64,000 nt of DNA from Nitrospinota bacterium (GTDB taxonomy: Bacteria; Nitrospinota_A; UBA7883). The notes below the pieces were generated by a model. That model searched no databases, was not told where the DNA came from, and worked only from the letters and a program-made list of their open reading frames with translations. Shown piece after piece: positions 12,664 through 60,092 of the stretch. Where the stretch lies: positions 156,689 to 220,688 of the forward strand of contig CBDCXE010000003.1 of the NCBI GenBank assembly GCA_965223725.1, written 5' to 3'. Made by a program: the position numbers and the translations under genes. Within the stretch, counting starts at the first letter, position 1. Every line of letters starts with the position of its first letter.

Positions 12664-13818
12664 ATGAAACATAAGCAATTAGTATTATCCATAACCCTGC
12701 TTTTCGTAATGGCGAGCAGTGGCTGCTCCACCACCACAGGTGTGACCGGCGGCGGCCCGACCATGGCCCAGGCGATGAAGGCTGGTTATGACGGGCCGAA
12801 GGCGCGGGTGGCTGTGGTCAGGTTCCTGAACAAAACCGCCCATGGTGGTGGAGAGTTTGGCAGTGGGTTGTCTGATATGCTGATCAGCTCCATGTTTCAA
12901 TCGGATCGTTTTATCATGCTCGACCGGTCCGACCTGGGCGATGTTGTCACCGAGCAGGACTTCGCCGCGGCCGGGCGAATATCGGAAGAGACCGCCGCAG
13001 CCATCGGCCAGATAGAAGGCGCCGACCTGCTGGTCATGGGCTCTGTCACAGAATTTGAGAAGGACCAGATCGGCGTGGGTGGTATCCTCATTGGAATATT
13101 GAGTATAGTAGGGTCTGTGGTGATAGCTTCCAAAAATGACGACGCTCCGCTCGGCGCGGTTACCTATAAGCAATCCCATGTGGCTATGGACCTGAAGGTG
13201 GTGGACGCGCGCACAGGCCGGGTGGTGCACGCTAATAACGTAACAGGAACATATCAGGATTGGGGCGGCGGAATCATCGGCGGCGTGGGCGGCGGCCGGT
13301 CGAGGGTGCCGGTGGGCCTGGGCGGATTCGCCGGGACCGGCGCAGAACAGGCGATCAAAAAGCTGATCAAGGCTTCAGTCGGCGAAATAGTCAAAAACAC
13401 ACCCACCAAATATTATCGGGAAATAACAGAGCCGGTGATCAAGGCAGGTCGGCTGGCCGCCATCTATCCGGTGGCCCTGCCGGACGCCAAGTCGGTCAAC
13501 CTAACGAAGAAAGAAGCGTTGATTATTGATGACGAAGAGAGTTATGGAAAACTGCTGGGCGACCTGGGTGTCGCTCGGGAAGGCGCGCCCGACTTCGACT
13601 GGAAACAAGCCAGGCTGATTGCCACATTCGCCGGGTCAAAAAAGTATTCTGGACATCGCATCGCCGTTGATAAAGCCATCCATCACAAAGACCATCTGGA
13701 AATTCAAATCAGGGAAGTCGAACCGGAAGAGAAAACAGAATTAGCCCACCCGGAAACTCCCTTCGACATCGCCCGTATCCACAACCCCGGCAAACCGATC
13801 CGCATAGTTTGGAAATAA
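12664..13818 (+). CDS. CsgG-family lipoprotein (curli-type secretion channel homologue) with ~120 aa C-terminal extension
   Basis: Lipobox MASSGCS; CsgG core (ARVAVVRFLNKT...LSDMLISSMFQSDRFIMLDRS...LLVMGSVTEF). Confidence 0.7.
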   Translation: MKHKQLVLSITLLFVMASSGCSTTTGVTGGGPTMAQAMKAGYDGPKARVAVVRFLNKTAHGGGEFGSGLSDMLISSMFQSDRFIMLDRSDLGDVVTEQDFAAAGRISEETAAAIGQIEGADLLVMGSVTEFEKDQIGVGGILIGILSIVGSVVIASKNDDAPLGAVTYKQSHVAMDLKVVDARTGRVVHANNVTGTYQDWGGGIIGGVGGGRSRVPVGLGGFAGTGAEQAIKKLIKASVGEIVKNTPTKYYREITEPVIKAGRLAAIYPVALPDAKSVNLTKKEALIIDDEESYGKLLGDLGVAREGAPDFDWKQARLIATFAGSKKYSGHRIAVDKAIHHKDHLEIQIREVEPEEKTELAHPETPFDIARIHNPGKPIRIVWK

Positions 13819-19611: not shown

Positions 19612-20613
19612 GTGATTCTAAAATATGATATTGATCAACTCACTGGATTAATAGGCGGACGTCTTTTTGGTGGCCAGCCAGGCCAAAACCCGCCTTTAAT
19701 GATTACCACCATGTTTGCCGCCGGCGATAAAATCGTGAAATCCCGCAAGCAGAACAGGTTTGATCAAAATGCCGCCCGTGCGCAAATAGAGCGAATCATG
19801 GAGCTGGAGATCATAACAGGTTTACCTTCCCTAATAGATTTTGTGGCCAATTCAACCGGGGAAATAATACGCTATATAGATCTGTTTCTGGAAGTGACCG
19901 GCAAAACCGGGATGCCGTTCGCTTCTGACATGTTTATGAAAAAGGATAAGCTGGAAACCGCCAGGTATGTGGCCTCGATCGGAGAGCTGGACCGATACTT
20001 ATATAATTCACTCTCATTTTATGAAACAGAAGATCTTCAGGATGAGATTGAAGCGATCGCTAAAATCGGTGTAAAACATCTGTTGCTGGCGCTATGGGAC
20101 AAAGATTCCGAGCTGTCTGAAGGGCGGATGAAATGTCTGGGGAAAATGGCGCCACTACTGGAGCCATACAACTTCGAAACCATCCTGTGTGATACCACAC
20201 CGCTCAGCCTGCCCGCCTCGATGATTGGTAACAGGGCTGCGGAACTGATAAAGGAGAAATATGGCTTGTTATCTGGCTGTGGCCGTAACAACGGAGTATT
20301 GAACTGGTGGCGGGCATCGGGAGAGATGGGCGGAGTTAACACCTACAAGTCTGTTGATACTTCCATGGAAGCGCTCGGCTCTATGGGCGCGGACTTTCTG
20401 TTATATGGGCCAGCCGACGCCGCAGGCCGGATATACCCGGCGGTGGCCATCGCCCAATGCAACCTGGCCACCCTGGTTATGGACAAATATAAGACCTTGC
20501 CAGAAAATATGGAGCATCCGATCTACAAGATGTTTCCGGACGCAGTGAAAATGTTCCAGGATATGATTGCCGGCGCGCAAACAAAAAGACGCTGGCTTAT
20601 GAAACCGGGGTAA
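19612..20613 (+). CDS. MtrH-like methyltransferase (tetrahydromethanopterin/tetrahydrofolate:corrinoid methyltransferase subunit H family)
   Basis: N-terminal GGRLFGGQPGQNPPLMITTMFAAGDKIV ... FDQNAARAQIERIMEL matches the conserved MtrH N-terminus. Confidence 0.65.
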   Translation: MILKYDIDQLTGLIGGRLFGGQPGQNPPLMITTMFAAGDKIVKSRKQNRFDQNAARAQIERIMELEIITGLPSLIDFVANSTGEIIRYIDLFLEVTGKTGMPFASDMFMKKDKLETARYVASIGELDRYLYNSLSFYETEDLQDEIEAIAKIGVKHLLLALWDKDSELSEGRMKCLGKMAPLLEPYNFETILCDTTPLSLPASMIGNRAAELIKEKYGLLSGCGRNNGVLNWWRASGEMGGVNTYKSVDTSMEALGSMGADFLLYGPADAAGRIYPAVAIAQCNLATLVMDKYKTLPENMEHPIYKMFPDAVKMFQDMIAGAQTKRRWLMKPG

Positions 20614-37802: not shown

Positions 37803-39032
37803 ATGAGCCGTACGGCTTCGGTAATTACAATAGTTGCGACCATTTTTGCGTTGTCGCTGGCGTTCGCTTTTACTGGACCAGGCAAAGGAATTTATAAGCC
37901 GGGCCCTTTACTGTCGGGGCATGAAAGGTTTGGGACCGCTTGCCAGGCTTGTCACGAAAGATGGAGCGACCCATCGGAAGAAAAATGTATAGTTTGCCAC
38001 CAGCATCTTAAGAAAGACGACACCCACTCGGCCAAAGCAATGGCGAATCCGGTCAAGGCCGTTATCCCGGCCGAACTGGAGAAGCTAGGCTGTGTGTCAT
38101 GCCATATGGAGCATATGGCTGACATCATTTCATCCGGATATACCGGCCCGCTCGACTTTTGTATCGGTTGCCATCCGGTGGATAAGCTGAACCTGGGGCA
38201 CAAAAAATTTGGCAATAAATCGTGCGCCGAATCGTCGTGCCATAACTATCATTACAACCTGCCCGTAGAAGAATTTAAAACTTCCAGTAATGTCCGGCTA
38301 TTGCCATCTACCATAAAGGTAGTAAAGCCAGAGCCGAAAGAGCGCTTTAAAGCGACCGATGAAGTGATGGAGGCCATGCGCGGCTCCAAATTTTATAAAT
38401 CGAACAAGATAATATCCGCCCAGTATAACCTGAGCGATCACAACGGCACTGAGGCCACATGCGACAAGTGCCATAAAACGAAACTCGGTTTGCGAACCCT
38501 TCAGCCATCGATTAATGTTTGCATGTCTTGCCATGAGTATCAGACCAGGACGTTTGGGTTTGGCAGGCATGGCGCCCCGTCGCGGCTGAAGGTCGCGCCG
38601 GCGGAAGATGAAAGCGCGCAGGTCGGATGCGGGTCGTGCCACGATGTGCACAGCCTGAGGCAGGAAAACTCCAGATATCAGGCATGCGTCCGGTGCCATG
38701 AAAATGACCATGAATTAAATTACAGTAAATCCGGGCATTCGCGGTACCTGACCGACCCTGTGTTTAATCTGAAGCCGATGAAAGGCGCCGACTGCGCCAC
38801 CTGCCATATGCCATTGATGGAAAACGCCCAGGGGGCCACCATGCATAATGAAAGCTATACATCATCATCCAGATGGAAAATGGCTGAAACCGTATGCGTG
38901 CGGTGCCACGGCCTGGAGTTTGCGCTGCGTGGCCTGTATGACAATGGTATGGTCAAGCATGGCTTCACATTCTCGCCAGACTCCACCCCGGTGGGGATTG
39001 AATACGGATTCCGTAAAACGGATGTAAAATAG
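37803..39032 (+). CDS. multiheme (deca-heme) cytochrome c, secreted
   Basis: Signal peptide; 10 CXXCH motifs (CQACH, CIVCH, CVSCH, CIGCH, CDKCH, CMSCH, CGSCH, CVRCH, CATCH, CVRCH) plus one CX4CH. Confidence 0.85.
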   Translation: MSRTASVITIVATIFALSLAFAFTGPGKGIYKPGPLLSGHERFGTACQACHERWSDPSEEKCIVCHQHLKKDDTHSAKAMANPVKAVIPAELEKLGCVSCHMEHMADIISSGYTGPLDFCIGCHPVDKLNLGHKKFGNKSCAESSCHNYHYNLPVEEFKTSSNVRLLPSTIKVVKPEPKERFKATDEVMEAMRGSKFYKSNKIISAQYNLSDHNGTEATCDKCHKTKLGLRTLQPSINVCMSCHEYQTRTFGFGRHGAPSRLKVAPAEDESAQVGCGSCHDVHSLRQENSRYQACVRCHENDHELNYSKSGHSRYLTDPVFNLKPMKGADCATCHMPLMENAQGATMHNESYTSSSRWKMAETVCVRCHGLEFALRGLYDNGMVKHGFTFSPDSTPVGIEYGFRKTDVK

Positions 39033-43408: not shown

Positions 43409-44107
43409 CTAGGCGCGAAACTCGAAAGTGTAGGAGCCGATGCTGAATTGATCTTCATCAGCAAGCTTATGATTTGTGATCTTGTTGCCGTTCATCTTCA
43501 GCTTGGAATACCCGCCCTGATAGGCGATAAAATAACCGTCGGCAGATTTGGTGACGCTGGCGGCTACTTTGCCGATGAAAAAGCCGCTGATCTTTATATC
43601 AGAATTGGGGCCAGAGCCGATCAATGTGGTTTCCTTTTCCAGCCTGAAGGCCTTTGGAGGGCCGGATGATTGATGGATCAATATTTTCGAAGGTTTTTCT
43701 TCCGCTTCCTTTTTCGCCAGGGTTGATTCACTTATTATATTTCTGATTTGCCCTGTATCCACCATAACGGTCATCCCTCCGATATCATCTTCGCGATCGA
43801 AAGCGTCAACCGGGCTCGATTCCTCATCCGGGTTGCGATATTTCAGGTGGAACCGCCCTATGGTAATCACATCGCCGGAGCGCAGCTCCTGCACCGCCAC
43901 TTGCTTGGAATTAATAAAGGTGCCGTTGGTACTGTCCAAATCGTGGACTATGAACCTGTTCCCCACTTTTTCGATCTTTACATGGGCGGCGGATACTGTA
44001 GGGTTTTTCAGGATGATATCCCCCTTTTCGCGCCCCACAGCAATGGTCTTTATAAGATTAATCTCTTTAAAGACTTTATCCTTACTGGATATAGTTAACG
44101 TAGCCAT
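43409..44107 (-). CDS. protein with two FHA domains
   Basis: N-terminal FHA (TIAVGREKGDIILKNPTVSAAHVKIE...LDSTNGTFIN) and a second FHA-like C-terminal half. Confidence 0.75.
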   Translation of the reverse strand: MATLTISSKDKVFKEINLIKTIAVGREKGDIILKNPTVSAAHVKIEKVGNRFIVHDLDSTNGTFINSKQVAVQELRSGDVITIGRFHLKYRNPDEESSPVDAFDREDDIGGMTVMVDTGQIRNIISESTLAKKEAEEKPSKILIHQSSGPPKAFRLEKETTLIGSGPNSDIKISGFFIGKVAASVTKSADGYFIAYQGGYSKLKMNGNKITNHKLADEDQFSIGSYTFEFRA

Positions 44108-44400: not shown

Positions 44401-46116
44401 ATGTTATCAAGCAGATTCAATAAAACCTGGTTCTTCTATAGTTTTCCAATTACGCTTCTGATAGCGCTGGTAACGCTGGACGCAGGGGTCGGCCATGCCT
44501 TTTCGCTGGGCAAAATCCGGGTCACCGGCGCCTTCGAAAGCCCGTTCCGGGCGGAAATCCCTGTGCGCTCCAACGGTATGGAAGGTCTGCAGGCGTGGCT
44601 GGGGGACGAAAACGATTACCGGAAAATGGGGCTGGAGCGGCCAGCGATCATAGACACCCTGTCGCTGGAGGTGGCCGACCATCCAATCCATAGCGACCAG
44701 AAAATTATCTATATCACCGGCACAGAGCCGATATCACAGCCCTCATTCAACCTGGCCATCAAAGCCGCGTTGGGCAGCGGCGTGATCCTGGAGAATTATT
44801 TTCTGGCGCTTGACTTCCAGAAAAACCTCAGCCTGGAAGCGCCCACCACCAAAGAGGAACGCGAAGAGATGAAAAAGGTCGCCAGCGAGCTTGAAGCGCT
44901 GCGCCCCGGGGCGGATAAAAAAATCGTAGACCAGGAACAGGCCGCCGTGGTGGAAGGGGCGGAGCTGATGTCGGAGCTGGACAAAATCCGCGCCGAGGAA
45001 GAGATAGCGGAAGCGAAGAGAAATAACAGAAACGCCGATAAACCGGCGGCGGTGGTGAAAAAGAAAAGCGTGACCATGAAAGAGCCTGCCGTTGTGGAGC
45101 GGGAAATAACATCTGTAGATATAGAAACAGCATATATAGACCCAAAGCCTGCAGCTCAAACAGCTAAACAGGAGACAGCGCCACAGAAAAAAGCGTCCGA
45201 TGTGATGGCGATAGCCTTATCTTCCGACCCGGCGAAGAACCGGTATGATGTGGTGGGCGGCGACACCTTGTACCAGGTCGCCAAAAAACTGGGCGCCACC
45301 GACAAGGACCTGGATCGCGTGGTGGTAGCGTTGTGGAAAGATAATAAAGAGCATTTCATCGATGGCAACATTCATGGGCTGCTGAAAGGGCGGACCCTCG
45401 ATTTTTCCAGCGTAAACGAAACCTTTCACAATACAACGCATGAAGAAGCGAACAAAGTGATCATGGGACAGTGGCCCGAATGGCAAGCGTTCAGAAGATC
45501 GTTAAAACCGGCGCCGGTGATGAAAGCGAAAGCCGCGCCTGCGGATCGACCGGCAAAAAAAGCTGCTGGTGGCGACCTTACCGTGGAGCCGGTCGGCCTG
45601 GAGATGTCCGCCGAGGAACAGGCATCGCTGGCGGACGAGTCGGCGCCGGAGGAAACGCAAAGCCATCCCTATGTGTTGCATGTGGCGTCGTTCAAAAAGC
45701 GGGACGACGCGCGGGAGCTGGTGTCGCTGTTGCGGAGCAAGGGTGTGAGCGCGTTTGAAGTGTTAAGCTCCATCGCTAATAAAGGTGAATGGTACCGGGT
45801 TGTGACGAACCGGTTCGATTCTCCGGCGGAGGCGGAGGAATTTTCCGAGAAGATCGGCAAGCTGGGCGTCTCCCGATACACCCGCATCCTCAACCTGCCG
45901 TACGCCATACAGATAGGCGCCGATATCGGGCAGGCGGAAGCGAAGACCAAGCTGGACGAATTATACAAAGCCGGAATTTCCGCATACAGCATGGACAGCG
46001 GCAGGGAAGGCTATGTGCGGCTCTACTCCGGCGCGTTCGAGTCGGCGGCGAGCGCGGACCTGGCGATGGACTCTCTTCCTCAAATCGGCATACGTTATAG
46101 CGTGGTCCAGCCTTGA
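44401..46116 (+). CDS. FimV-like protein with LysM-like and C-terminal SPOR domains
   Basis: Signal/TM then FimV-N motif (FSLGKIRVTGAFESPFRAEIPV), LysM-like segment (DVVGGDTLYQVAKKLG), coiled-coil/low-complexity region, two SPOR-like repeats at the C-terminus. Confidence 0.65.
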   Translation: MLSSRFNKTWFFYSFPITLLIALVTLDAGVGHAFSLGKIRVTGAFESPFRAEIPVRSNGMEGLQAWLGDENDYRKMGLERPAIIDTLSLEVADHPIHSDQKIIYITGTEPISQPSFNLAIKAALGSGVILENYFLALDFQKNLSLEAPTTKEEREEMKKVASELEALRPGADKKIVDQEQAAVVEGAELMSELDKIRAEEEIAEAKRNNRNADKPAAVVKKKSVTMKEPAVVEREITSVDIETAYIDPKPAAQTAKQETAPQKKASDVMAIALSSDPAKNRYDVVGGDTLYQVAKKLGATDKDLDRVVVALWKDNKEHFIDGNIHGLLKGRTLDFSSVNETFHNTTHEEANKVIMGQWPEWQAFRRSLKPAPVMKAKAAPADRPAKKAAGGDLTVEPVGLEMSAEEQASLADESAPEETQSHPYVLHVASFKKRDDARELVSLLRSKGVSAFEVLSSIANKGEWYRVVTNRFDSPAEAEEFSEKIGKLGVSRYTRILNLPYAIQIGADIGQAEAKTKLDELYKAGISAYSMDSGREGYVRLYSGAFESAASADLAMDSLPQIGIRYSVVQP

Positions 46117-49209: not shown

Positions 49210-49239
49210 TTGACAACTCAATAAATATTGAATTATACT
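49210..49239 (+). promoter_or_regulatory. sigma70-like promoter (TTGACA-N17-TTATAC) for the GTPase/Roadblock operon
   Basis: Read directly from sequence; ~125 nt upstream of the first operon gene. Confidence 0.35.
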
Positions 49240-49362: not shown

Positions 49363-50424
49363 ATGAATAAAACAGTATCGACAGGACAGAAACCGACTCC
49401 AGAAGTGGAGTCGTACAAGAAAGTTGCCAGAGATTTACTGAAATTAAGCGAGTTTTCTTTAGCGCTGGGTGTATGTAACCAAGGTTTGAATAAAAACCCT
49501 GATAGTAGCGCGATGTTTATTACCAAGTCAGAAGTTTTCATCGCCCAATACAAAGGCGAAAGCAACCCGGACTTGCTGAAAAAAGCTTTATCAAACCTGA
49601 ATAATGCCATAAAGCTGGACCCGAACAACTATATAGCCAAAATCCTTGCCAGTCAGATATACCTTAAGGGCAGCGCATTCAGCAAGGCCACAACCTTGTT
49701 GGAAAGTATTTTGAGCGCGTTTCCCAACGACGCCCGGGCATTGGCGTTGATGGACGCGGTCACCGCCAAAATGGCCAAACAGGTGACGCAGACTGCCAAG
49801 GTTCAGGACGTGGAAAAAAAGGCCAGGGCGGAAGCGAAGCCGTCTGCGGCGCCAGCGTCCGACATCATGCAAGGCATGTCCGCCGCCGCCGACAGGGGCG
49901 AAAGGGCCAAGCCGACTGATCCAGAGGTCGTCGAGGATGAAGTGATAATTGCCAGCGACGCCGAACGCCCGGTCGAGGTTCCGGGTGGACTGGTGGAGAC
50001 CAGCCCGGGTGACACCGGTTGGTTTACCGATGACCAGGAGGTCATATTAATCGGTGATGACAAGGACGACACCAAGCATATTGAAATACTGAAATCCAAT
50101 TTCACCATGTTCAGCCGGCTGGATGGTCTGAGCGCGATTTTCCTTGTCAGCGAAAATGGAGAGCCGCTGAAGATCATAAACAAATCCAAAATCGATGAAA
50201 AAGTTTTGCCGTCGCTGATATCAGACCTGTACAGGGCTTCGTTTGTGGGTGTTCAGAAAACACGCTTCGGCAGTTTTCAACGGGGTAAGCTGGTGACACC
50301 TTTGGGCACCATATTCATTGCCAATGCGTTCTATGCGATTCTGGCGCTGGTGGTGAAGAATGACGCCAACTTCAAAACTGTCAACGCCCGGATAAACAGA
50401 TATCTCGAAGAGGTGTCACGATGA
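49363..50424 (+). CDS. TPR-like N-terminal domain + C-terminal Roadblock/LC7 (MglB-like) domain protein
   Basis: TPR-like helical N-terminus; C-terminal ~110 aa has the Roadblock pattern (LSAIFLVSENGEPL ... FIANAFYAILALVV). Confidence 0.55.
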   Translation: MNKTVSTGQKPTPEVESYKKVARDLLKLSEFSLALGVCNQGLNKNPDSSAMFITKSEVFIAQYKGESNPDLLKKALSNLNNAIKLDPNNYIAKILASQIYLKGSAFSKATTLLESILSAFPNDARALALMDAVTAKMAKQVTQTAKVQDVEKKARAEAKPSAAPASDIMQGMSAAADRGERAKPTDPEVVEDEVIIASDAERPVEVPGGLVETSPGDTGWFTDDQEVILIGDDKDDTKHIEILKSNFTMFSRLDGLSAIFLVSENGEPLKIINKSKIDEKVLPSLISDLYRASFVGVQKTRFGSFQRGKLVTPLGTIFIANAFYAILALVVKNDANFKTVNARINRYLEEVSR

Positions 50425-50783
50425 ACGCGCTTAAATCCGCGCTGAATATTTTACGTAATGATCATCACGTGCGAGACAGCCTGGTTGTCACGAAGGACGG
50501 TATGATAATAGAGTCGAGTTTGGATGATATACGCAGGGCGGAGAAGTTAAGCGCTTATTCGTCGCAGATTGCGCTAACAATCAAGGCATCTATGAAAGAT
50601 TTGGGGTTTGATAATTTTATCCGGTATGTAATAAGCTCCAACGAGGGCAAGATATATATTGTCGACCTGGGCCAATCGCTGCTGGTCACGCTGACCGACC
50701 TGGATATTGATTCTGAAAGAATAAATGTGGCGCTATTTCAAGCGGCGAACCTCATTAAAAAATCGGGCAGACTGGATATATAG
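50421..50783 (+). CDS. Roadblock/LC7 domain protein (MglB-like)
   Basis: DSLVVTKDGMIIESS ... KIYIVDLGQSLLVTLT; start overlaps the upstream stop (ATGA). Confidence 0.7.
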   Translation: MNALKSALNILRNDHHVRDSLVVTKDGMIIESSLDDIRRAEKLSAYSSQIALTIKASMKDLGFDNFIRYVISSNEGKIYIVDLGQSLLVTLTDLDIDSERINVALFQAANLIKKSGRLDI

Positions 50784-50803
50784 GGTGTAAATAAAATATA
50801 ACC

Positions 50804-52033
50804 ATGCAAATAAACTATGCAAAGCAGGAGGTGTCTTGCAAGATCGTCTATTATGGGCCGGGGATGAGCGGCAAGACAACCAACCTGGAGATAATACACC
50901 AAAAGGTTCCTGAAGATAACAAAGGGCAAATGACATCTATCGCCACAGAAGGCGATCGCACCCTGTTTTTCGATTTTCTGCCTTTGGACCTGGGCAACGT
51001 GAGGGGTATGACGACCAAGTTCCAGCTTTATACCGTGCCGGGGCAGGTCTACTACGCTTCCACAAGGAAGTTGGTGTTGCAAGGCGCCGATGGCGTTATA
51101 TTTGTCGCCGACTCTCAGGCGGACAAGCTGGCCGAGAATATCGAGTCGTTTGAAGATCTTAAGGAGAACCTGAGTGAATCGAGGATCGATATTGAGGAAA
51201 TACCGTTTGTGATGCAGTGGAACAAGCGTGACCTTCCGGGCGCCATGCCGATAGAAGAGCTGGAAGAAAAAGTAAACCTGATCAACGCGCCGTCCGTATC
51301 GGCGGTGGCGGCGACTGGTGAGGGAGTGCTGGAGACATTGAAAATGATAGCGTCCCTGGTATTGGAGAGGCTCAATAGCAGTGATAAAGCAGAACAACCC
51401 GCCGCCAAGCCGGCGCCAGCGCAAGCGCCCAAAAAAACGGATCATGGCGCCGATGAGTATATCGCCAAGGTCAACAACGATTCGATCTCGAAGGCGTATT
51501 TCAACCAGTATTGTCAGGTTCAGTACAGGCTGGGTGTTAAAAACGATGCAGTGAGTGATTTTAAAAAGTTTACACTGGAAGAGAAAAAGAGACTGCTCGA
51601 TTCCTTGATCAACTATGTCCTGCTGCTACAAGACGCTAAAAGCCGTGGTTTAAAAGCGGACAGGAGTGAGGTGTCTGCCCAGTTAAGTTCGTTCAGTAAT
51701 AAGTTTCGCGCCAGGGAAGAGCTCGATAAATTCCTGGAAACGCGTAACCTCACCATGGACAATCTGCGCAATGAGGCCATTAAAAACATCATCATCGGAA
51801 AAATCATCCATGATGTTATTCCCGATGTACAGCAGAGGGTTCGAATATCAGAAAATGAGATGCGCGATCACTATAATGAAAACAAGAATAAATACGGTGA
51901 TAAGCCGTTGGATCAGGTGAAAAGGGATGTAGCTTCCTATTTAAAGGCCATCAAAAAACGCGCTTTACTCAACGAGTTTTACAGTAAACTACGATCCCGG
52001 GCCTCTATTGAAGTGAGGGAAGATAAATTATAA
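50804..52033 (+). CDS. mglA: MglA-family Ras-like small GTPase fused to a C-terminal SurA-N-like chaperone domain
   Basis: N-terminal ~190 aa near-collinear with MglA (KIVYYGPGMSGKTTNL, DRTLFFDFLPL, YTVPGQVYY, NKRD); Ala/Pro-rich linker; C-terminal ~200 aa matches the SurA/PpiD N-terminal domain pattern (LLDSLINYVLLLQDAKSRGLKADRSEV ...). Confidence 0.8.
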   Translation: MQINYAKQEVSCKIVYYGPGMSGKTTNLEIIHQKVPEDNKGQMTSIATEGDRTLFFDFLPLDLGNVRGMTTKFQLYTVPGQVYYASTRKLVLQGADGVIFVADSQADKLAENIESFEDLKENLSESRIDIEEIPFVMQWNKRDLPGAMPIEELEEKVNLINAPSVSAVAATGEGVLETLKMIASLVLERLNSSDKAEQPAAKPAPAQAPKKTDHGADEYIAKVNNDSISKAYFNQYCQVQYRLGVKNDAVSDFKKFTLEEKKRLLDSLINYVLLLQDAKSRGLKADRSEVSAQLSSFSNKFRAREELDKFLETRNLTMDNLRNEAIKNIIIGKIIHDVIPDVQQRVRISENEMRDHYNENKNKYGDKPLDQVKRDVASYLKAIKKRALLNEFYSKLRSRASIEVREDKL

Positions 52034-52051
52034 CAGTTTTGAGGTGAGCCG

Positions 52052-52552
52052 ATGAAAGATAACAAACTGCGGGACCAACGGCTTGTGTATTACAAAGAGG
52101 ATCTCGACCAGATTGATAAGCTAGTTTCAGAGTTTCTTAAACTATCCAATGCAAGATGTCTTTTTCTTATAGACAAGGAAGGGCACTCCATCACCAGCTC
52201 TGGCTCCACCCAGGAGATAGACCCGGAGACTATTTCCGCCCTTGTGGCTGGCTCCTTCGCCGCCACCAAAGAGTTGGCCAGAACATTGGGCGAGAGTGAA
52301 TTTTCCGTCATGTTTCATCAAGGCAAGACTGATAATATCCATGTGTCACTGATCGGGGACAGGGCCATAACCGCCATAGTATTCGACGAGAAAACCACTG
52401 TTGGCATGATAAATCTGTATTCGAAGGAGCTGACCAGCAAACTGGAAAAAATATTTGATATAGCGTCACGACGGGTAGCCCAACAAAGCGTGATAGAAAC
52501 CAATTATTCAGAGTCTGTAAAAGATAAACTGGACGATATGTTTAAAGACTGA
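52052..52552 (+). CDS. Roadblock/LC7 domain protein (MglB-like, third copy)
   Basis: CLFLIDKEGHSITSSGS ... AITAIVFD pattern. Confidence 0.65.
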   Translation: MKDNKLRDQRLVYYKEDLDQIDKLVSEFLKLSNARCLFLIDKEGHSITSSGSTQEIDPETISALVAGSFAATKELARTLGESEFSVMFHQGKTDNIHVSLIGDRAITAIVFDEKTTVGMINLYSKELTSKLEKIFDIASRRVAQQSVIETNYSESVKDKLDDMFKD

Positions 52553-52583
52553 GCCATTTCACTAGGCTGAATAAAGCTTCGTC

Positions 52584-54503
52584 TTGCAAAGGCATATGAA
52601 AAAAACAAGCTGGATGGTATGTTGCCTGATAATCGCGCTTTTTTATATTTCAAATGAAGGCGCTTTTGCCTATGGCGCGGATGAGCAGGGGACCTATCTG
52701 CCGTTAAACCGTTTTAATGAAGGCTCCCTTGTTTCCCACAGCGAGCTGTCGGACGCCCTTTGGTCCTGGAAAGAATCGATAGACTCCGCCGATCGTGTGG
52801 AAGCGCTGGAGGCCACCAGCAGGGTCCAGAGCTCCGTCGATCATTTTGGGCCACGCAATTTTATATCCCTCGCCGATTTTTTTATTTCTGCAGGCAGAAC
52901 AGCCATAAAGAATAATAACTATGAAGGCGCCGTTCTGGCCGGTAAAAACGCCGCCATGTTCGCGCCAGATTATCCTGCGGCAAACTTTTTTCTGGCTGAC
53001 GCTTTGTTTAAACAAGACAAGTTAAATATCAGCAGCGTAGTTTATTCCATGGTGGCGGGAATAAAATCGAAGTTAACAAATCGTTTGGAGCGCAACAGGC
53101 TGGTCTCATTCCATATGCTATATTTTCTGTTGTCTTTAGCCGTGGCGTTTGTCGCGTGTTTCCTGGTTATGCTCTATACCAACATTCACACATTGTTTGC
53201 CGATATAGCGCTCCGTTTGCCGTTCAAGCCGGGTCGGTACGTCAAGCTCGCTATTATAGCCTTGTTAATTATTTTGCCCTTCGCCCTAGGTGGTTGTTTG
53301 TTGTTCGCCATGGCTCTGCCATTGCTGACCTGGCCATACCTGCGGCCAGCGGGCCGGATGATTGTTCTGCTGTTCGCTATATTTATTCTGATCGTTCCAC
53401 CAAGTTTCAAACTGTTGGCCACAGCCGAAGTGATACAGAAAGAAGATACTTACAAGACGCTGTTATCGCTGACTGATCAAACGTGGGACCATGAGATGAT
53501 CGCGGCGCTGGAACGGGAATACGACAGCCACCCTGATAACGATCTGACCACATTTGCATTGGGTAATTTATATCATCTGGCCGGCATGGATGAAAAAGCC
53601 ATCGCCGTGTATGACGCGTTGCTGGCCATGGACCCAGGGAACGTACAGGTTATGGTGAACAAGGCGAATATATACTTCGAACTGAAAGATTATGAAAGCG
53701 CCAGAAAGCTTTATAACGAAGCGCTGGTGGTGGACCCAAAGTCTGTGGAAGCGCACTATAACCTGGCAAATACTTACACTGCGCTGTTTCGCACCAAGGA
53801 TTCCGACATTGCATACCAGAAAGCTCGCAGTATTAATCCGGAAAAAACCGACAGTTTCAGGGTCGCCCTTGAAAGTAATCCGGATAAAAAAGTATTTGGC
53901 TTTCCAATCACGAAAAAACATTTGAAACAATACAGAAAAACCATGAGCCCGAAAGTTGAATCGTTGGCTTCGGCGTTCTGGGTAACTTATTTTGGCGCCA
54001 CATCGCGCAATGCTTACTACTTGCTGGCGGTGTTGTTTTTATTGGTTGTCTGCCTGCTCTATTTAGTGTGGCATCGTGTTATCGCCCACCAGACCTGCTC
54101 TTCATGCGGCAAGCCGTTTCTTCCCCCTATCCATGTCAAATCACCAGACCCTAGGTGTAACCAGTGTGTGGCGACACAAAGCACAAAAAAAGTTGTGTCG
54201 ACAGCTAAAAAAGAGAGCAAGCGCAAGAAGATAAGGATATATCAATCACGCCGCGCTACCATCGCCAGGATCATGGACAGGGTATTGCCCGGCATGGGGC
54301 GGACCTTTTTTCAACCTACGATCACAGGGTTTGTATTAACATTTGTCACATTCTGGCTCCTGATCTATGTGGGTGTATACCTGTATGACGCCGCAGTTTT
54401 GCAATTGGGCGTTTTGGCAAGTTACTGGAAGCTTTCTATTATCGTGGTGGCGGCGCTTTACTGGCTGAGTATGAACACATTTCTTAAACGGGAATTTTAT
54501 TGA
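52584..54503 (+). CDS. polytopic membrane protein with TPR repeats and a Cys4 zinc-ribbon
   Basis: Signal/TM, TPR repeats (e.g. AIAVYDALLAMDPGNVQVMVNKANIYFELKDYESARKLYNEALVVDP), multiple TM helices, CSSCGKPF...CNQC zinc-ribbon, basic stretch. Confidence 0.6.
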   Translation: MQRHMKKTSWMVCCLIIALFYISNEGAFAYGADEQGTYLPLNRFNEGSLVSHSELSDALWSWKESIDSADRVEALEATSRVQSSVDHFGPRNFISLADFFISAGRTAIKNNNYEGAVLAGKNAAMFAPDYPAANFFLADALFKQDKLNISSVVYSMVAGIKSKLTNRLERNRLVSFHMLYFLLSLAVAFVACFLVMLYTNIHTLFADIALRLPFKPGRYVKLAIIALLIILPFALGGCLLFAMALPLLTWPYLRPAGRMIVLLFAIFILIVPPSFKLLATAEVIQKEDTYKTLLSLTDQTWDHEMIAALEREYDSHPDNDLTTFALGNLYHLAGMDEKAIAVYDALLAMDPGNVQVMVNKANIYFELKDYESARKLYNEALVVDPKSVEAHYNLANTYTALFRTKDSDIAYQKARSINPEKTDSFRVALESNPDKKVFGFPITKKHLKQYRKTMSPKVESLASAFWVTYFGATSRNAYYLLAVLFLLVVCLLYLVWHRVIAHQTCSSCGKPFLPPIHVKSPDPRCNQCVATQSTKKVVSTAKKESKRKKIRIYQSRRATIARIMDRVLPGMGRTFFQPTITGFVLTFVTFWLLIYVGVYLYDAAVLQLGVLASYWKLSIIVVAALYWLSMNTFLKREFY

Positions 54504-54504
54504 T

Positions 54505-55704
54505 ATGGCCCTTAGAGGAAGCCTGGACGATTTTAATATCGTAAACATCCTGCAGATGATAAAGCTGGAGAACAAAACCGGCAAGCTGTCCCTGAACGAA
54601 CTGGATGACCAGGTGAACATTACCTTCGATGATGGCAAAATAGTCTATGCGGAGGGCACAATCGAAAGTGATGAGAAACGTCTTCAATCAACACTGCTCA
54701 GCAACTATATGATCCGGCCCGAAGACTGGAAAGCGATTGAAACAGAACATGAAAACAGGCTCACGTCTTACTGGGATATCCTTCCGAGATATGTGAACCA
54801 TCAGGCGCTTTCGGAGCTGATCAGCCGCCAGGTGGTCGATAACGTTTACTATGCGTTGAGATGGTCCAAAGGGACATACGAATTCACGCCAATGAAAAGC
54901 GTCACGTACAACAAAAGCACAATGCCCCACCGGGATGTGGATGGGATGCTGATGGATGGTGTTCATGTGGCCGACTTATGGGTCAAGACCAGCGCTTATA
55001 TGCCCCCCATGGGCACTTACGTTGAAAAAAATATCATGGGCGAAGTGGAAGCTGGTGGAGCCCTGGATAATACAGATAGCGCGGAGAGCAGGGAGGATTT
55101 CATAGGATCGCTGGAGCATGAGATCCTGACAGCCCGCGGCGTCTCCCTTACCGATCAGGAAACAAAAGTCCTCGCTGTACTGGTTGAAAGCAAGACGATA
55201 GATGGTATTTTAAATTCCGCCCGTCAAAATAAATATGACTCATTACAGGCGTGCCAGTCGTTACTAAAGGCCGGGATCATTAAAGAGGTGAGACCAGGTG
55301 ATCAAACCGCAGCCAGGAAAGGCAACAGTAAATATTCAATAGGTGGGCTGGCCACGGTCCTGATTATAGCGGCGGTGGTAGTGGCGGGGGTGATCTACCA
55401 GCTGATAGCATGGCCCGACGGGCGGGCGGCCAGCGATAGCGGCTCTACAAAAGTTATGATTCATAACTCTGAGAAAGGGCTGAAAAAAATAGAGCATGCA
55501 ATTAAAATATATATTGCATTGAGCAGGGAATACCCCGACGATTTAAATAACCTGGTAAACTCTGGAGTATTGCAAAGCTCTGATATAGTGGATCCATGGG
55601 GCAGGGATTATGAACTGGTCATTACAGAAGATCGTTTTTCACTTTTTTCCCATGGTCCGGATGATATGACAACATCTGATAATATATATCTGCCTGCTAA
55701 TTAA
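54505..55704 (+). CDS. DUF4388 domain - TM helix - type II secretion pseudopilin (GspG)-like C-terminal domain protein
   Basis: N-terminal DUF4388 hallmark (GSLDDFNIVNILQMI); TM helix (LATVLIIAAVVVAGVIYQLI); C-terminus matches the GspG/T2SS_G domain (IKIYIALSREYPDDLNNLVNSGVL...DPWGRDYELVI...FSLFSHGPD); no prepilin cleavage motif. Confidence 0.7.
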   Translation: MALRGSLDDFNIVNILQMIKLENKTGKLSLNELDDQVNITFDDGKIVYAEGTIESDEKRLQSTLLSNYMIRPEDWKAIETEHENRLTSYWDILPRYVNHQALSELISRQVVDNVYYALRWSKGTYEFTPMKSVTYNKSTMPHRDVDGMLMDGVHVADLWVKTSAYMPPMGTYVEKNIMGEVEAGGALDNTDSAESREDFIGSLEHEILTARGVSLTDQETKVLAVLVESKTIDGILNSARQNKYDSLQACQSLLKAGIIKEVRPGDQTAARKGNSKYSIGGLATVLIIAAVVVAGVIYQLIAWPDGRAASDSGSTKVMIHNSEKGLKKIEHAIKIYIALSREYPDDLNNLVNSGVLQSSDIVDPWGRDYELVITEDRFSLFSHGPDDMTTSDNIYLPAN

Positions 55705-55784
55705 AATAATTAAACCACGATTTTATTTATTGAATTTATTATATACAGCCTGGCCAAATATCAGGCGGTTTCATTACTAAGGGG

Positions 55785-57294: not shown

Positions 57295-57810
57295 ATGAAA
57301 TCAAAAAGAGAACTTAAAGATATTTTAGAGAGCAGGAAAGCCCTGTTTAAACGTAAACCGGAAGCTGCTATTTACAAGCCGAAGGTGACCACGCAATGGA
57401 AAGGGGGCCTGCTGCATGAAAACAGTATAAGGGATCATATTGTAGAGTCGGACTATCCGGTTCCATCTGGCGGGTCCGATAAGGCGGCCAACCCTATGGA
57501 GTTGGTGCTTGCGTCGCTCGGCTCTTGTGTATCCGCTGTGTATATCGAATACGCCGTATTGATGGGTGTTACCCTAGACAGCGTGACCGTGGAGACGGAA
57601 GGGGTGATAGACCTGCGTGGATTGTTTAGCGTAGCCGATGATGTGCCTTCCGGGTTCGAGTCGATCACTTATAATGTAACCATCAAATCTGGCGAGGGTA
57701 AGGATGCGATCGATAAACTGATCGCCGTGGCGGAGAGCCACTGCCCGGTATCAGATTCGCTGAAAAGAAGCGTAACCGTAAAATCGAATGTCGAGGTAGT
57801 TTCCGGCTAA
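57295..57810 (+). CDS. OsmC/Ohr family protein
   Basis: Conserved Cys pair (LGSCVS ... ESHCPVSDSL). Confidence 0.8.
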   Translation: MKSKRELKDILESRKALFKRKPEAAIYKPKVTTQWKGGLLHENSIRDHIVESDYPVPSGGSDKAANPMELVLASLGSCVSAVYIEYAVLMGVTLDSVTVETEGVIDLRGLFSVADDVPSGFESITYNVTIKSGEGKDAIDKLIAVAESHCPVSDSLKRSVTVKSNVEVVSG

Positions 57811-60092
57811 CGGTTGACACCGCCCAAAAACGCTGGCCATATGGCGGCGTTTGGCTCTGTTTTACGATTGAACGAGTAGACGCTGATTTTACCATTCTGG
57901 CTTGCTGTGGCTATATCTACAGTTCCATCGCCGTTTATATCACCGACAGTTGGCGAGGCGACAAAGCTGTTGGCGCCTTCGACAGGGATGTTCAAAACCA
58001 CCTGTCGCCCAGCGACATCGACCACCGATATAGCGCCCTCCTGATCCAGCGCGATAATATTCAAAACGCCGTTATTATCGAAATCGACCAGCGCCAAAGA
58101 CGCTTTCACTTTTGCGCCCAGCGGCGCGCGCCAATCTTCTTCACCACTGGCCAGGTCCAGAATATGAATATCACCCTTCGTCGATACAATTGCGATCTCA
58201 GAAACATTGTCTCCATCCATATCGGCGATGACAGGGCTGGAAAAAAATTCACTTTTTACATCGTATTTCCATACTACCTTTCCATCCATCGATGAAAGGG
58301 CGATCAGTCCGCTCTCTTTTGTGGCGAATACTACCAGGCCCTTTTTACCCGCTTTACCATAAGCAGGCGAAGAGTATTGCACCGGCGGTATATTAGCGGA
58401 CCAGAGCAGGGCCGGTTTGTCACGACGGCCTGTCACGGCGGCGACTTTGCCGGAGCTGGAAACAGTGATAAATTCAGGAGGGCCATCCCGATTCAAATCA
58501 GCTAGCAAAGGAACGGCCACCAGCGCGCCGGTATCCAGGTGGGCGGTATCCCACAGCTTGGCGCCATTGCTACCGTCCAGCGCCACCAGTCCTTTTTTAA
58601 TGGTAGGAACAATTATGTCCGGAATGTTGTCGCCTGTGATATCCCGGATGGTCGGCATGTTGATGACACTGCCAAGCTGGAGGCCAGAGCCAGCTTTCCA
58701 TAAAGTTTTTCCTTTACCATCCAGAGCGGTCACACCCCCGGAATTATCGGCGATAATGATATCCTCTGATCCATCACCATCCAGGTCGGCGGTAGCTGGC
58801 GCCGCAAAAACAGGCGCCGAGTTGTCGACTTTAAACAACTGTTTGCCATCTTGCCCGTTGAAGGCGAGCGCCATACCGGTGGCAGACGCAATAATAACAT
58901 CCAGCGAACCATCACCATTGATATCAGCCAGGGCAGGGGTGGCCGGGTTGCTGGCGCTGTGGGTCATGCTTTGCTCCCACATTAGTTTGCTGTCGAGCCT
59001 TTGCAAACTATCTCCGCCCTGCCGCGCCAGGTTTCCCCCAGGCTCACCTTTCGATCTGCTCTCCCACAGCTCCAGGCCTTTAATTTTTTCGATCAATGGG
59101 TTCAAAGTTGTCGTATCTATCAGGCCGGGGCTGAACGCGGAGTTAACAATGAAACCGGCTATAATAAGGCTCAGCAACGCTAGTAACCAGCCAAACATCG
59201 GATAATGGGTTGAACGTTTGACCGATGTTGAATCAAAATCGATCTCTTCTTCATCAATATCTTTGAAATCGGGGAAATTATCTTTTGGACCGCCAACACT
59301 GGCGACAATATCCTCCGGGACAGAGAGGTCTTCGATATCATGCACCACCGTCTCCCCCGCAGTTGATTCAACCTTATCGTCCGATATGTCCAAATCAGTG
59401 GCAGGTATCCTGATGACTGTCAGGTCAGGGTCAGCCTTGCTTTTCCCTACCATAAACCGGACCAGATCAAATCCGACCTTGTCACCTTCATTCAGTTCTG
59501 ATTCCCTGGTTTCCACCCCATTCACAAAAGTTCCGTTGATAGACGCCAGATCCTCGACCATTAACTTGCCACCTTTTATATAGAGCTGCGCATGCTTCCG
59601 GGAAACTCCGTCTGATTTGATAACAATATCGTTCGACTCGTCACGGCCGACCGTCTGGGTCGACGTGATAAAAAATTTCATTTTTTGAAAGTCTTTACTT
59701 TGGCCCTCGATATACCATTTTGTATTCTCTTTTGTGGGTGACCCGATTTCTATTTCTGGTTCCGCTGGCGCTTGCGCGTCCAGTTCCATCCTGGCGAATT
59801 CATCTGGATCAATATCCATAACCTTGATGGTTGAATTGCCCAGCTTGATGATATCCTGTGGCTCTAACTTATGCTTTTCGTCGATGCATTCATCATTCAC
59901 AACAGTGCCGGAGGCGCTATCGAGGTCCAAAACATAGATTTCGTCCTCTTCGGTAATTATTTCAGCATGAAAATCATCGATCCAACGATCTTTCAGGATA
60001 ATATCGTTCTTTGGATCGGCGCCAATACGCAACCGGGGTGTGTCGAGAACCATCCGCTCCTGATCAATTCCACTGATATTTAAAACTATCAT
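57807..60092 (-). CDS. transmembrane protein with two N-terminal FHA domains and a C-terminal FG-GAP-type beta-propeller
   Basis: Two FHA modules; a TM helix (MFGWLLALLSLIIAGFIV); seven D-x-[DN]-G-D-G repeats (INGDGSLDVII, DLDGDGSEDIII, ITGDNIPDII, DLNRDGPPEFI, DMDGDNVSEIAI, DFDNNGVLNIIA, DINGDGTVDIA). Confidence 0.75.
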   Translation of the reverse strand: MIVLNISGIDQERMVLDTPRLRIGADPKNDIILKDRWIDDFHAEIITEEDEIYVLDLDSASGTVVNDECIDEKHKLEPQDIIKLGNSTIKVMDIDPDEFARMELDAQAPAEPEIEIGSPTKENTKWYIEGQSKDFQKMKFFITSTQTVGRDESNDIVIKSDGVSRKHAQLYIKGGKLMVEDLASINGTFVNGVETRESELNEGDKVGFDLVRFMVGKSKADPDLTVIRIPATDLDISDDKVESTAGETVVHDIEDLSVPEDIVASVGGPKDNFPDFKDIDEEEIDFDSTSVKRSTHYPMFGWLLALLSLIIAGFIVNSAFSPGLIDTTTLNPLIEKIKGLELWESRSKGEPGGNLARQGGDSLQRLDSKLMWEQSMTHSASNPATPALADINGDGSLDVIIASATGMALAFNGQDGKQLFKVDNSAPVFAAPATADLDGDGSEDIIIADNSGGVTALDGKGKTLWKAGSGLQLGSVINMPTIRDITGDNIPDIIVPTIKKGLVALDGSNGAKLWDTAHLDTGALVAVPLLADLNRDGPPEFITVSSSGKVAAVTGRRDKPALLWSANIPPVQYSSPAYGKAGKKGLVVFATKESGLIALSSMDGKVVWKYDVKSEFFSSPVIADMDGDNVSEIAIVSTKGDIHILDLASGEEDWRAPLGAKVKASLALVDFDNNGVLNIIALDQEGAISVVDVAGRQVVLNIPVEGANSFVASPTVGDINGDGTVDIATASQNGKISVYSFNRKTEPNAAIWPAFLGGVNR

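Follow-up and report, generated by a model that had tools for sequence, protein, structure and literature searches.

GspL and the PilM–PilN pair link a cytoplasmic domain that touches an ATPase N-terminus, through one transmembrane (TM) helix, to a periplasmic domain that touches (pseudo)pilins. MglB is the GTPase-activating partner of MglA. Cyanobacterial PATAN regulators bind the PilB N-terminus and PilC's N-terminal domain, as does the membrane-localised PixE 1–258 construct with the corresponding parts of PilB1 and PilC. PATAN genes are already known as neighbours of mglA and mglB, type IV pili (T4P) of myxobacteria are under MglA control, and earlier work has noted that the helical insert of PATAN resembles repeats at the N-termini of ATPases from T4P and from type II secretion systems (T2SS). 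How the cytoplasmic MglA switch and PATAN regulators reach envelope-spanning machines is unsettled, and here we describe a concrete candidate, a gene from a window of 64,000 nt of Nitrospinota bacterium GCA_965223725.1 (contig CBDCXE010000003.1, positions 156,689–220,688, forward strand) whose product combines an N-terminal PATAN domain with a C-terminal domain of the type found in the major pseudopilin GspG (Table 1).

This PATAN-GspG protein is a conserved protein of the inner membrane, to which we tentatively assign the role of a bitopic adaptor, its function being putative. The reading we prefer, with confidence falling slightly short of even, is that it works with a tetratricopeptide repeat (TPR) membrane protein encoded directly upstream and, in Nitrospinota, forms the envelope arm of an MglA switch. 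As a candidate link it would carry, on one polypeptide, PATAN on the cytoplasmic side and a domain shaped like a pilin on the outer side, together with a TPR partner conserved across three phyla. The family brings known domains into a new combination; it is uncharacterised and undescribed in the literature searched, in which no paper was found linking it, or any fusion of PATAN with a pseudopilin, to cyclic di-GMP (c-di-GMP) or pili.

Domain architecture and membrane topology

Scanning one genome per species yielded 124 relatives, with 80 loci kept; neighbour counts are based on local phmmer and hmmsearch on loci (81 loci/orthologs), and the annotation of the window comes from Pfam scans run directly on 36 of its open reading frames (ORFs). 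Thirty-four full-length orthologs share 36–76% identity with the window protein and keep an N-terminal MAL(K/Q/R)G(S/N)L, which backs the start assigned to the gene. The best-conserved region is the N-terminal 278 aa, and the TM sequence is poorly conserved across the family.

The PATAN domain scored 81.2 bits with PF14332 (DUF4388/PatA_N; gathering cut-off 25), 156 residues aligning to 121 positions of the hidden Markov model (HMM), and the same family matched all 34 full-length orthologs. In an AlphaFold2 model of the protein (mean predicted local distance difference test, pLDDT, 78.8) the PATAN core and its insert occupy residues 1–175 and are followed by a disordered stretch (180–195), a winged-helix-like domain and a low-confidence linker, then by a long helix (281–340) formed by the TM segment plus an alpha1C-like part, and lastly by a small beta head; pLDDT falls at residues 302–310, around a conserved Pro. 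Over the PATAN domain pLDDT is 85–92, with beta-strands on both sides of the helical insert: helices 53–118 sit between strands 45–50 and 124–129, hence a PATAN-type insert is present. A paper citing Makarova et al. 2006 gives an alpha-helical insertion in a beta-rich core as the hallmark of PATAN. Pfam gave no Response_reg match, and thus no CheY-like receiver, in the protein, the C-terminal half being TM helix and T2SSG-like domain.

Residues 279–303 are the only hydrophobic segment of the protein (Kyte-Doolittle maximum 2.73), and no signal peptide was found by hydropathy analysis. Exactly one TM helix is present in 81/81 orthologs, at approximately residues 250–280, therefore the two halves of the protein lie on opposite sides of the membrane. 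As PATAN domains are cytoplasmic and GspG-type domains periplasmic, we infer an N-in/C-out orientation. The initial annotation had read the gene as a DUF4388 domain joined through one internal helix to a GspG-like domain on the other side of the membrane, lacking a prepilin-peptidase site and encoded last in an MglA/Roadblock operon, and on all of these points our analysis agrees with it.

The GspG-like domain

Pfam T2SSG matched residues 321–390 of the window protein at 19.7 bits, slightly below its 21-bit gathering score, and 27 of 34 orthologs at E ≤ 0.01 (best 7.7e-8). A profile of the last 95 residues searched against the PDB returned eight GspG structures as its top matches, the best being 2kep over approximately the whole domain (E = 5e-5). 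Out of 1.8 billion proteins, the same profile matched 1970 at E ≤ 1e-3; classic prepilins were among them, with E values of ~1e-9 to 1e-11. The globular fold and signature of GspG, comprising alpha1C, DPWG..Y and a beta-sheet, are present, with DPW kept in 65/81 orthologs, and the S.GPD...D.DNI tail (residues 382–394), a candidate counterpart of the calcium-binding loop that steadies the GspG head, aligns to the region of GspG past the last strand. The likeness could in principle be chance, or a short DPWG..Y motif arising convergently on an unrelated small domain, as the sub-threshold score of the single sequence and the whole-chain Foldseek comparison (E 0.6–0.9, not significant) would allow, but the assignment holds at the level of the family, through the orthologs, the PDB profile and the prepilin matches, and we rejected this explanation as having a negligible probability. 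The checks proposed with the initial annotation came out in part: the HMM search clears the threshold for PF14332 but not for T2SSG on the single sequence, and GspG structures are retrieved from the PDB by the profile, the Foldseek comparison of the whole chain giving no significant match.

A MAFFT alignment shows the region of TM helix plus head to be collinear with mature prepilins all the way from the hydrophobic helix to the C-terminus, and PulG aligns over 108 residues, helix included. Such collinearity would suit a genuine pseudopilin or minor pilin, with a cryptic internal cleavage releasing a C-terminal part that is built into a filament of the T2SS or of T4P, but much else speaks against it. 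The prepilin-peptidase motif G/(F/M)(T/S)L(I/L)E, searched over the whole protein, was found in 0/81 orthologs; the Phe1 and Glu5 positions are not conserved in the family, the equivalent of Glu5 being non-acidic in the aligned sequences; and the NCBIfam equivalog for GspG (TIGR01710) was not reached, with 13.3 bits against a cut-off of 88.85. In addition the TM helix is unconserved, no gsp or pil genes lie nearby in the neighbourhoods examined, and the most conserved part is the 278-aa N-terminal region. A processed pseudopilin is thus largely refuted by sequence (no motif, no Glu5) and was rejected as very improbable. Without a class III signal peptide, Glu5 or a free N-terminus, neither PilD-type cleavage nor stacking into a filament would be expected, and the ectodomain is, judged by its sequence, a tethered, pilin-shaped and non-polymerising domain that cannot be a filament subunit.

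The layout itself was correctly read in the initial annotation, which called it unusual, but many GspG-like domains lack a prepilin signal: ~9/10 of the 149 closest GspG-like representatives have none and ~1/10 carry the prepilin motif, which makes this feature less exceptional than the annotation supposed. Outside prepilins these domains are widespread (e.g. in P0037, P0043 and P0113), occurring as 2–5 tandem copies after ordinary signal peptides or lipoboxes, as one copy within a 1986-aa zf-HC2/alpha-2-macroglobulin protein of anti-sigma-like layout (zf-HC2-TM-A2M), and in a Zn-ribbon-TM-T2SSG protein. The PATAN-GspG family shows the pseudopilin fold used as a tethered, non-polymerising periplasmic module.

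The TPR partner gene

The gene for a TPR protein with four invariant cysteines (TPR/Cys4) ends 1 nt ahead of the PATAN-GspG start. It adjoins the PATAN-GspG gene upstream in 67/81 loci, in three phyla. The intergenic gap measures at most 28 nt in 65 of the 67, with values of −10 nt (35 loci) and +1 nt (12 loci); the PATAN-GspG gene is translationally coupled to it. The cysteines (C505, C508, C525 and C528) are invariant across the three phyla, and the protein gave no known-family match beyond generic TPR. From its charge bias, the Cys4/Lys-Arg loop would be cytoplasmic and the TPR block 279–476 external, hydropathy and charge leaving the parity of TM helices ambiguous. The CxxC...CxxC loop is rich in Lys and Arg, and two TPR-like blocks are present besides.

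The MglA operon in the window

In the window, the PATAN-GspG gene is the last of a six-gene module (49363–55704, +) with gaps of −4, 20, 18, 31 and 1 nt between successive genes. The MglA ortholog matches Myxococcus xanthus MglA over residues 3–192 (E = 7e-70); its LYTVPGQ carries TxxGQ in place of DxxGQ, and MglB is encoded alongside, as in an MglA/MglB module. Its SurA_N_3-like part, of a chaperone type, is ~210 aa long and lacks a signal peptide or TM helix, hence a normally periplasmic fold would be cytoplasmic here; the fusion is kept in all Nitrospinota loci with the module. In the product of the first module gene, the C-terminal ~120 aa gave no BLASTP match and four PDB matches, all Roadblock proteins and all at E 0.3–0.6; it may be a third Roadblock/LC7-type domain of the operon, though this is unproven. 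A tie of the PATAN-GspG protein to MglA/MglB is suggested by co-conservation of the operon within Nitrospinota.

The PATAN insert and c-di-GMP

In Nitrospirota and Myxococcota orthologs the PATAN insert holds an MshEN-type unit of two 24-residue motifs separated by a 5-residue spacer (L082:8163–8345, the Nitrospirota locus L082). In Nitrospirota orthologs the motifs lie at residues 59–82 and 88–111 and fit nearly perfectly, as in L082 (RLGKVLVKKGLLSEEDLQAVLDEQ and RLGNLLVRKGISKKEDVEEVLTGQ), whose insert gave sequence matches to PilF, PilB and MshE with E values as low as 7e-16 (phmmer vs PDB). Both motifs retain at least 9 of 11 key positions in 51 of 55 Nitrospirota orthologs, and 24 Nitrospirota orthologs match the published relaxed motif twice, 29 residues apart. 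Pfam T2SSE_N did not match the PATAN insert even at E = 10. Outside Nitrospinota the insert is a predicted near-canonical MshEN-type c-di-GMP-binding module, homologous to the N-termini of PilB, PilF and MshE.

The window protein keeps 6/11 and 5/11 of the MshEN key positions, against 10–11/11 in Nitrospirota orthologs, and the key Gly and Gln positions are lost in it and in all 24 Nitrospinota orthologs (5–6 of 11 left). Its insert has no PDB similarity to PilB or MshE and does not match the published relaxed MshEN motif, and judging from these residues c-di-GMP binding by the window protein is not expected. The relaxed motif was absent from all 18 MglA-linked orthologs; among orthologs without MglA nearby (n = 63), at least one occurred in 47, and two spaced by exactly 29 residues in 24.

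Table 1 Positions within the window of the PATAN-GspG gene, its domains and the rest of the module
Feature	Position	Strand	Evidence
PATAN – winged-helix-like – TM – GspG-like protein, whole gene	54505..55704	+	ORF, 399 aa
PATAN / DUF4388 domain, residues 4–159	54514..54981	+	Pfam PF14332, E = 7.9e-23
PATAN helical insert, residues 59–109; degenerate remnant of two MshEN-type 24-residue c-di-GMP motifs	54679..54831	+	
Winged-helix-like domain, residues 200–262	55102..55290	+	AlphaFold model
Single TM helix, residues 279–303; collinear with pilin alpha1N, without Phe1/Glu5	55339..55413	+	Kyte-Doolittle, MAFFT
GspG-type body, residues 305–399: alpha1C-like helix, DPWG..Y 363–369, FSLFSHGPD 378–386	55417..55701	+	
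Usual partner: polytopic TPR membrane protein with invariant Cys4 zinc-ribbon loop, 639 aa	52584..54503	+	Pfam TPR
MglB ortholog (Roadblock/LC7)	52052..52552	+	Full-length match to M. xanthus MglB, E = 3e-29; Pfam Robl_LC7
MglA ortholog (residues 3–192) fused to C-terminal SurA_N_3-like domain	50804..52033	+	Pfam Arf and SurA_N_3
Second Roadblock/LC7 protein, 120 aa	50421..50783	+	Pfam Robl_LC7, E = 4.6e-10; weak PDB Roadblock match
First module gene: TPR_19 N-terminus and C-terminal ~120 aa	49363..50424	+	Pfam TPR_19; conserved in module
Best sigma-70-like promoter match, 5' of first module gene	49210..49239	+	TTGACA-18-TATACT, 11/12; consensus match only
Weak terminator-like hairpin between PATAN-GspG gene and pepA	55748..55766	+	Consensus match only

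Distribution and gene neighbourhoods

The PATAN-GspG family was found in Nitrospinota, in many Nitrospirota (Thermodesulfovibrionales) and in a few Myxococcota, including cultured Stigmatella, Archangium, Hyalangium and Vitiosangium, where its members are annotated as DUF4388 proteins or occasionally as "ComGC". The three phyla have no neighbour in common except the pair itself. Nitrospinota keep the six-gene module with varying flanking genes. In Nitrospirota an array of HAD hydrolase–pgsA–plsY–TPR–PATAN/GspG–queC is kept in 49–51 of 55 loci (L082:4692–9931), and in L082 plsY overlaps the TPR gene by 4 nt, thus the pair stands beside phospholipid-synthesis genes. In Myxococcota it lies between lptE/mazG and phoH (leuS–lptE...pair–phoH–ybeY); in Stigmatella (CP002271) the TPR member of the pair is 722 aa long.

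These two arrangements raise the question of whether the pair serves the biogenesis of the membrane and envelope, or acts at the divisome or pole, independently of any filament, the MglA operon being a secondary recruitment. The Nitrospirota synteny, the plsY/TPR overlap and the Myxococcota context fit such a role, as does the finding that in Anabaena another PATAN protein, full-length PatA, interacts with ZipN of the divisome (PMC7380572). However, synteny within one order may be mere inheritance, the three phyla share only the pair as a neighbour, and the closest characterised homologs of both end domains belong to type IV filament machines; we regard this explanation as unlikely.

Proposed function

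In the adaptor reading, the ~265 N-terminal residues, PATAN and winged-helix-like domains together, would be cytoplasmic, one helix would span the membrane and the ~95 C-terminal residues would be periplasmic. The protein would most likely form a complex in the membrane with the polytopic TPR/zinc-ribbon product encoded upstream. In Nitrospinota the pair would be the envelope-embedded arm of the MglA–MglB–Roadblock GTPase module, holding the switch at a fixed place in the membrane and lending it a contact in the periplasm, or relaying its state across the membrane. In sister lineages the cytoplasmic domain has, instead of the operon link to MglA, an intact MshEN-type site predicted to bind c-di-GMP, and this alternation of the two by lineage suggests that the regulatory input was exchanged. 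Since both ends are homologous to parts of type IV filament systems, namely the N-terminal module of extension ATPases and the major pseudopilin, the likeliest target would be the assembly platform. A role at a type IV filament machine is the most attractive specific hypothesis, and the protein may act there: it draws on the binding of PATAN to PilB and PilC in cyanobacteria, the position of PATAN genes beside mglA/mglB and the control of T4P by MglA in myxobacteria.

A number of observations weigh against this reading. The positive-inside rule is neutral on the orientation, with K+R of 3.8 vs 3.7 (81 orthologs). Most close relatives of the periplasmic GspG-like domain are non-pilin periplasmic proteins, hence the role of the domain may be unrelated to pili. 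T4P and T2SS machine genes, including the gspD/E/F families, are absent from the 36 window ORFs scanned and from the identified neighbours of loci L002, L003, L082, L079 and L084. MglA–MglB–Roadblock genes stand beside the pair in Nitrospinota loci only, and the contexts in Nitrospirota and Myxococcota are housekeeping ones without motility genes. The anti-correlation between the relaxed motif and MglA is essentially one of clade vs clade, not of independent events or statistical association, and at least one Nitrospinota-labelled locus (L024) has neither a nearby MglA nor the motif. The initial annotation had gone further in suggesting that the GTPase switch is coupled across the membrane to a pilus or pseudopilus. 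This claim stays hypothetical, as the usual partner is the TPR protein, MglA is confined to Nitrospinota loci and no T4P/T2SS genes lie nearby in the neighbourhoods examined, so that the annotation's interpretation finds support only in part.

The protein might alternatively be an outside-in receptor, in which the GspG-like head, perhaps jointly with the TPR protein, detects a ligand in the periplasm or the state of the envelope without any pilus machine, and signals via the TM helix to PATAN, which then controls MglA/MglB or, in the other phyla, integrates c-di-GMP. A bitopic layout fits a cytoplasmic output module with a periplasmic domain, GspG-like domains occur in many non-pilin periplasmic proteins and no pilus genes were found near the gene in the window ORFs scanned. 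Against this, GspG-type domains have no known ligand-binding function, PATAN is known for output and interaction, not as a receiver, and one TM helix whose linker contains Pro and is modelled at low confidence would conduct signals poorly unless the protein oligomerises. We regard this explanation as unlikely, on a par with the envelope role.

The bitopic adaptor remains our preferred reading, and a bolder one, of low probability, would make the protein a pilin mimic that is locked in the membrane and engages, on its two sides, the base of a type IV filament machine. The pseudopilin body would sit where a pilin docks or cover the subunit added last, and the PATAN/MshEN-like domain would fill the docking site of the extension-ATPase N-terminus. 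In Nitrospirota and Myxococcota c-di-GMP would thereby control the gating of filament assembly or the anchoring of the filament, and in Nitrospinota the nucleotide site would have decayed and control passed to the MglA GTPase switch. If true, a small G protein would have taken over from a second messenger as the input to one and the same device across the envelope. Orthologs in cultured myxobacteria (Stigmatella, Archangium) open these hypotheses to established motility genetics.

Other genes in the window

Elsewhere in the window, the sole pilus-related item in the scanned ORFs was a FimV_N + SPOR protein (44401–46116), 3 kb upstream of the module; FimV-type proteins elsewhere are polar, peptidoglycan-binding and pilus-associated. 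Two FHA proteins were detected: a 761-aa protein (57807–60092, −) that combines a pair of FHA domains with a TM helix and a beta-propeller of FG-GAP/PQQ type, and a separate 232-aa one (43409–44107, −) further upstream. The window also encodes a CsgG-like lipoprotein (12664–13818), an MtrH-like methyltransferase (19612–20613) and a multihaem cytochrome c3/c7-like protein (37803–39032).

Comparison with known systems

The PATAN-GspG protein differs from GspG itself (PulG/EpsG/XcpT) in having an internal hydrophobic helix that follows 278 aa of cytoplasmic sequence, in its shorter alpha-beta loop and in a gene that lies outside any gsp operon. GspL and PilM–PilN would have the same functional layout if the type IV filament hypothesis is right, but this is an analogy only: the cytoplasmic domain of GspL is actin-like and its periplasmic one ferredoxin-like, and no sequence or fold relation to the PATAN-GspG protein was found. 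MshE, PilB and PilF carry the MshEN module at the N-terminus of an ATPase, whereas in the PATAN-GspG family it is embedded within PATAN, where binding is predicted only.

The window operon likewise recalls MglA/MglB/SgmX of M. xanthus and MglA with a TPR protein in Bdellovibrio in combining MglA, MglB and TPR, with extra Roadblock proteins. It differs from both in the C-terminal SurA_N-like domain of MglA and in its two integral membrane proteins, and no RomR/RomX or Frz genes were seen with the window module.

The PatA-type regulators of cyanobacteria (PixE, PixG, PilG, PatA) share the N-terminal PATAN domain with its helical insert, and the PixE 1–258 construct is of approximately the same length as the ~260-aa cytoplasmic region of the PATAN-GspG protein. 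Where PatA-type regulators have a receiver (REC) domain, the PATAN-GspG protein instead has its own TM anchor and a periplasmic domain. Their input also differs, being phosphorylation in the PatA-type regulators and, in the PATAN-GspG family, probably an operon-linked MglA/MglB or, in other phyla, the MshEN motif.
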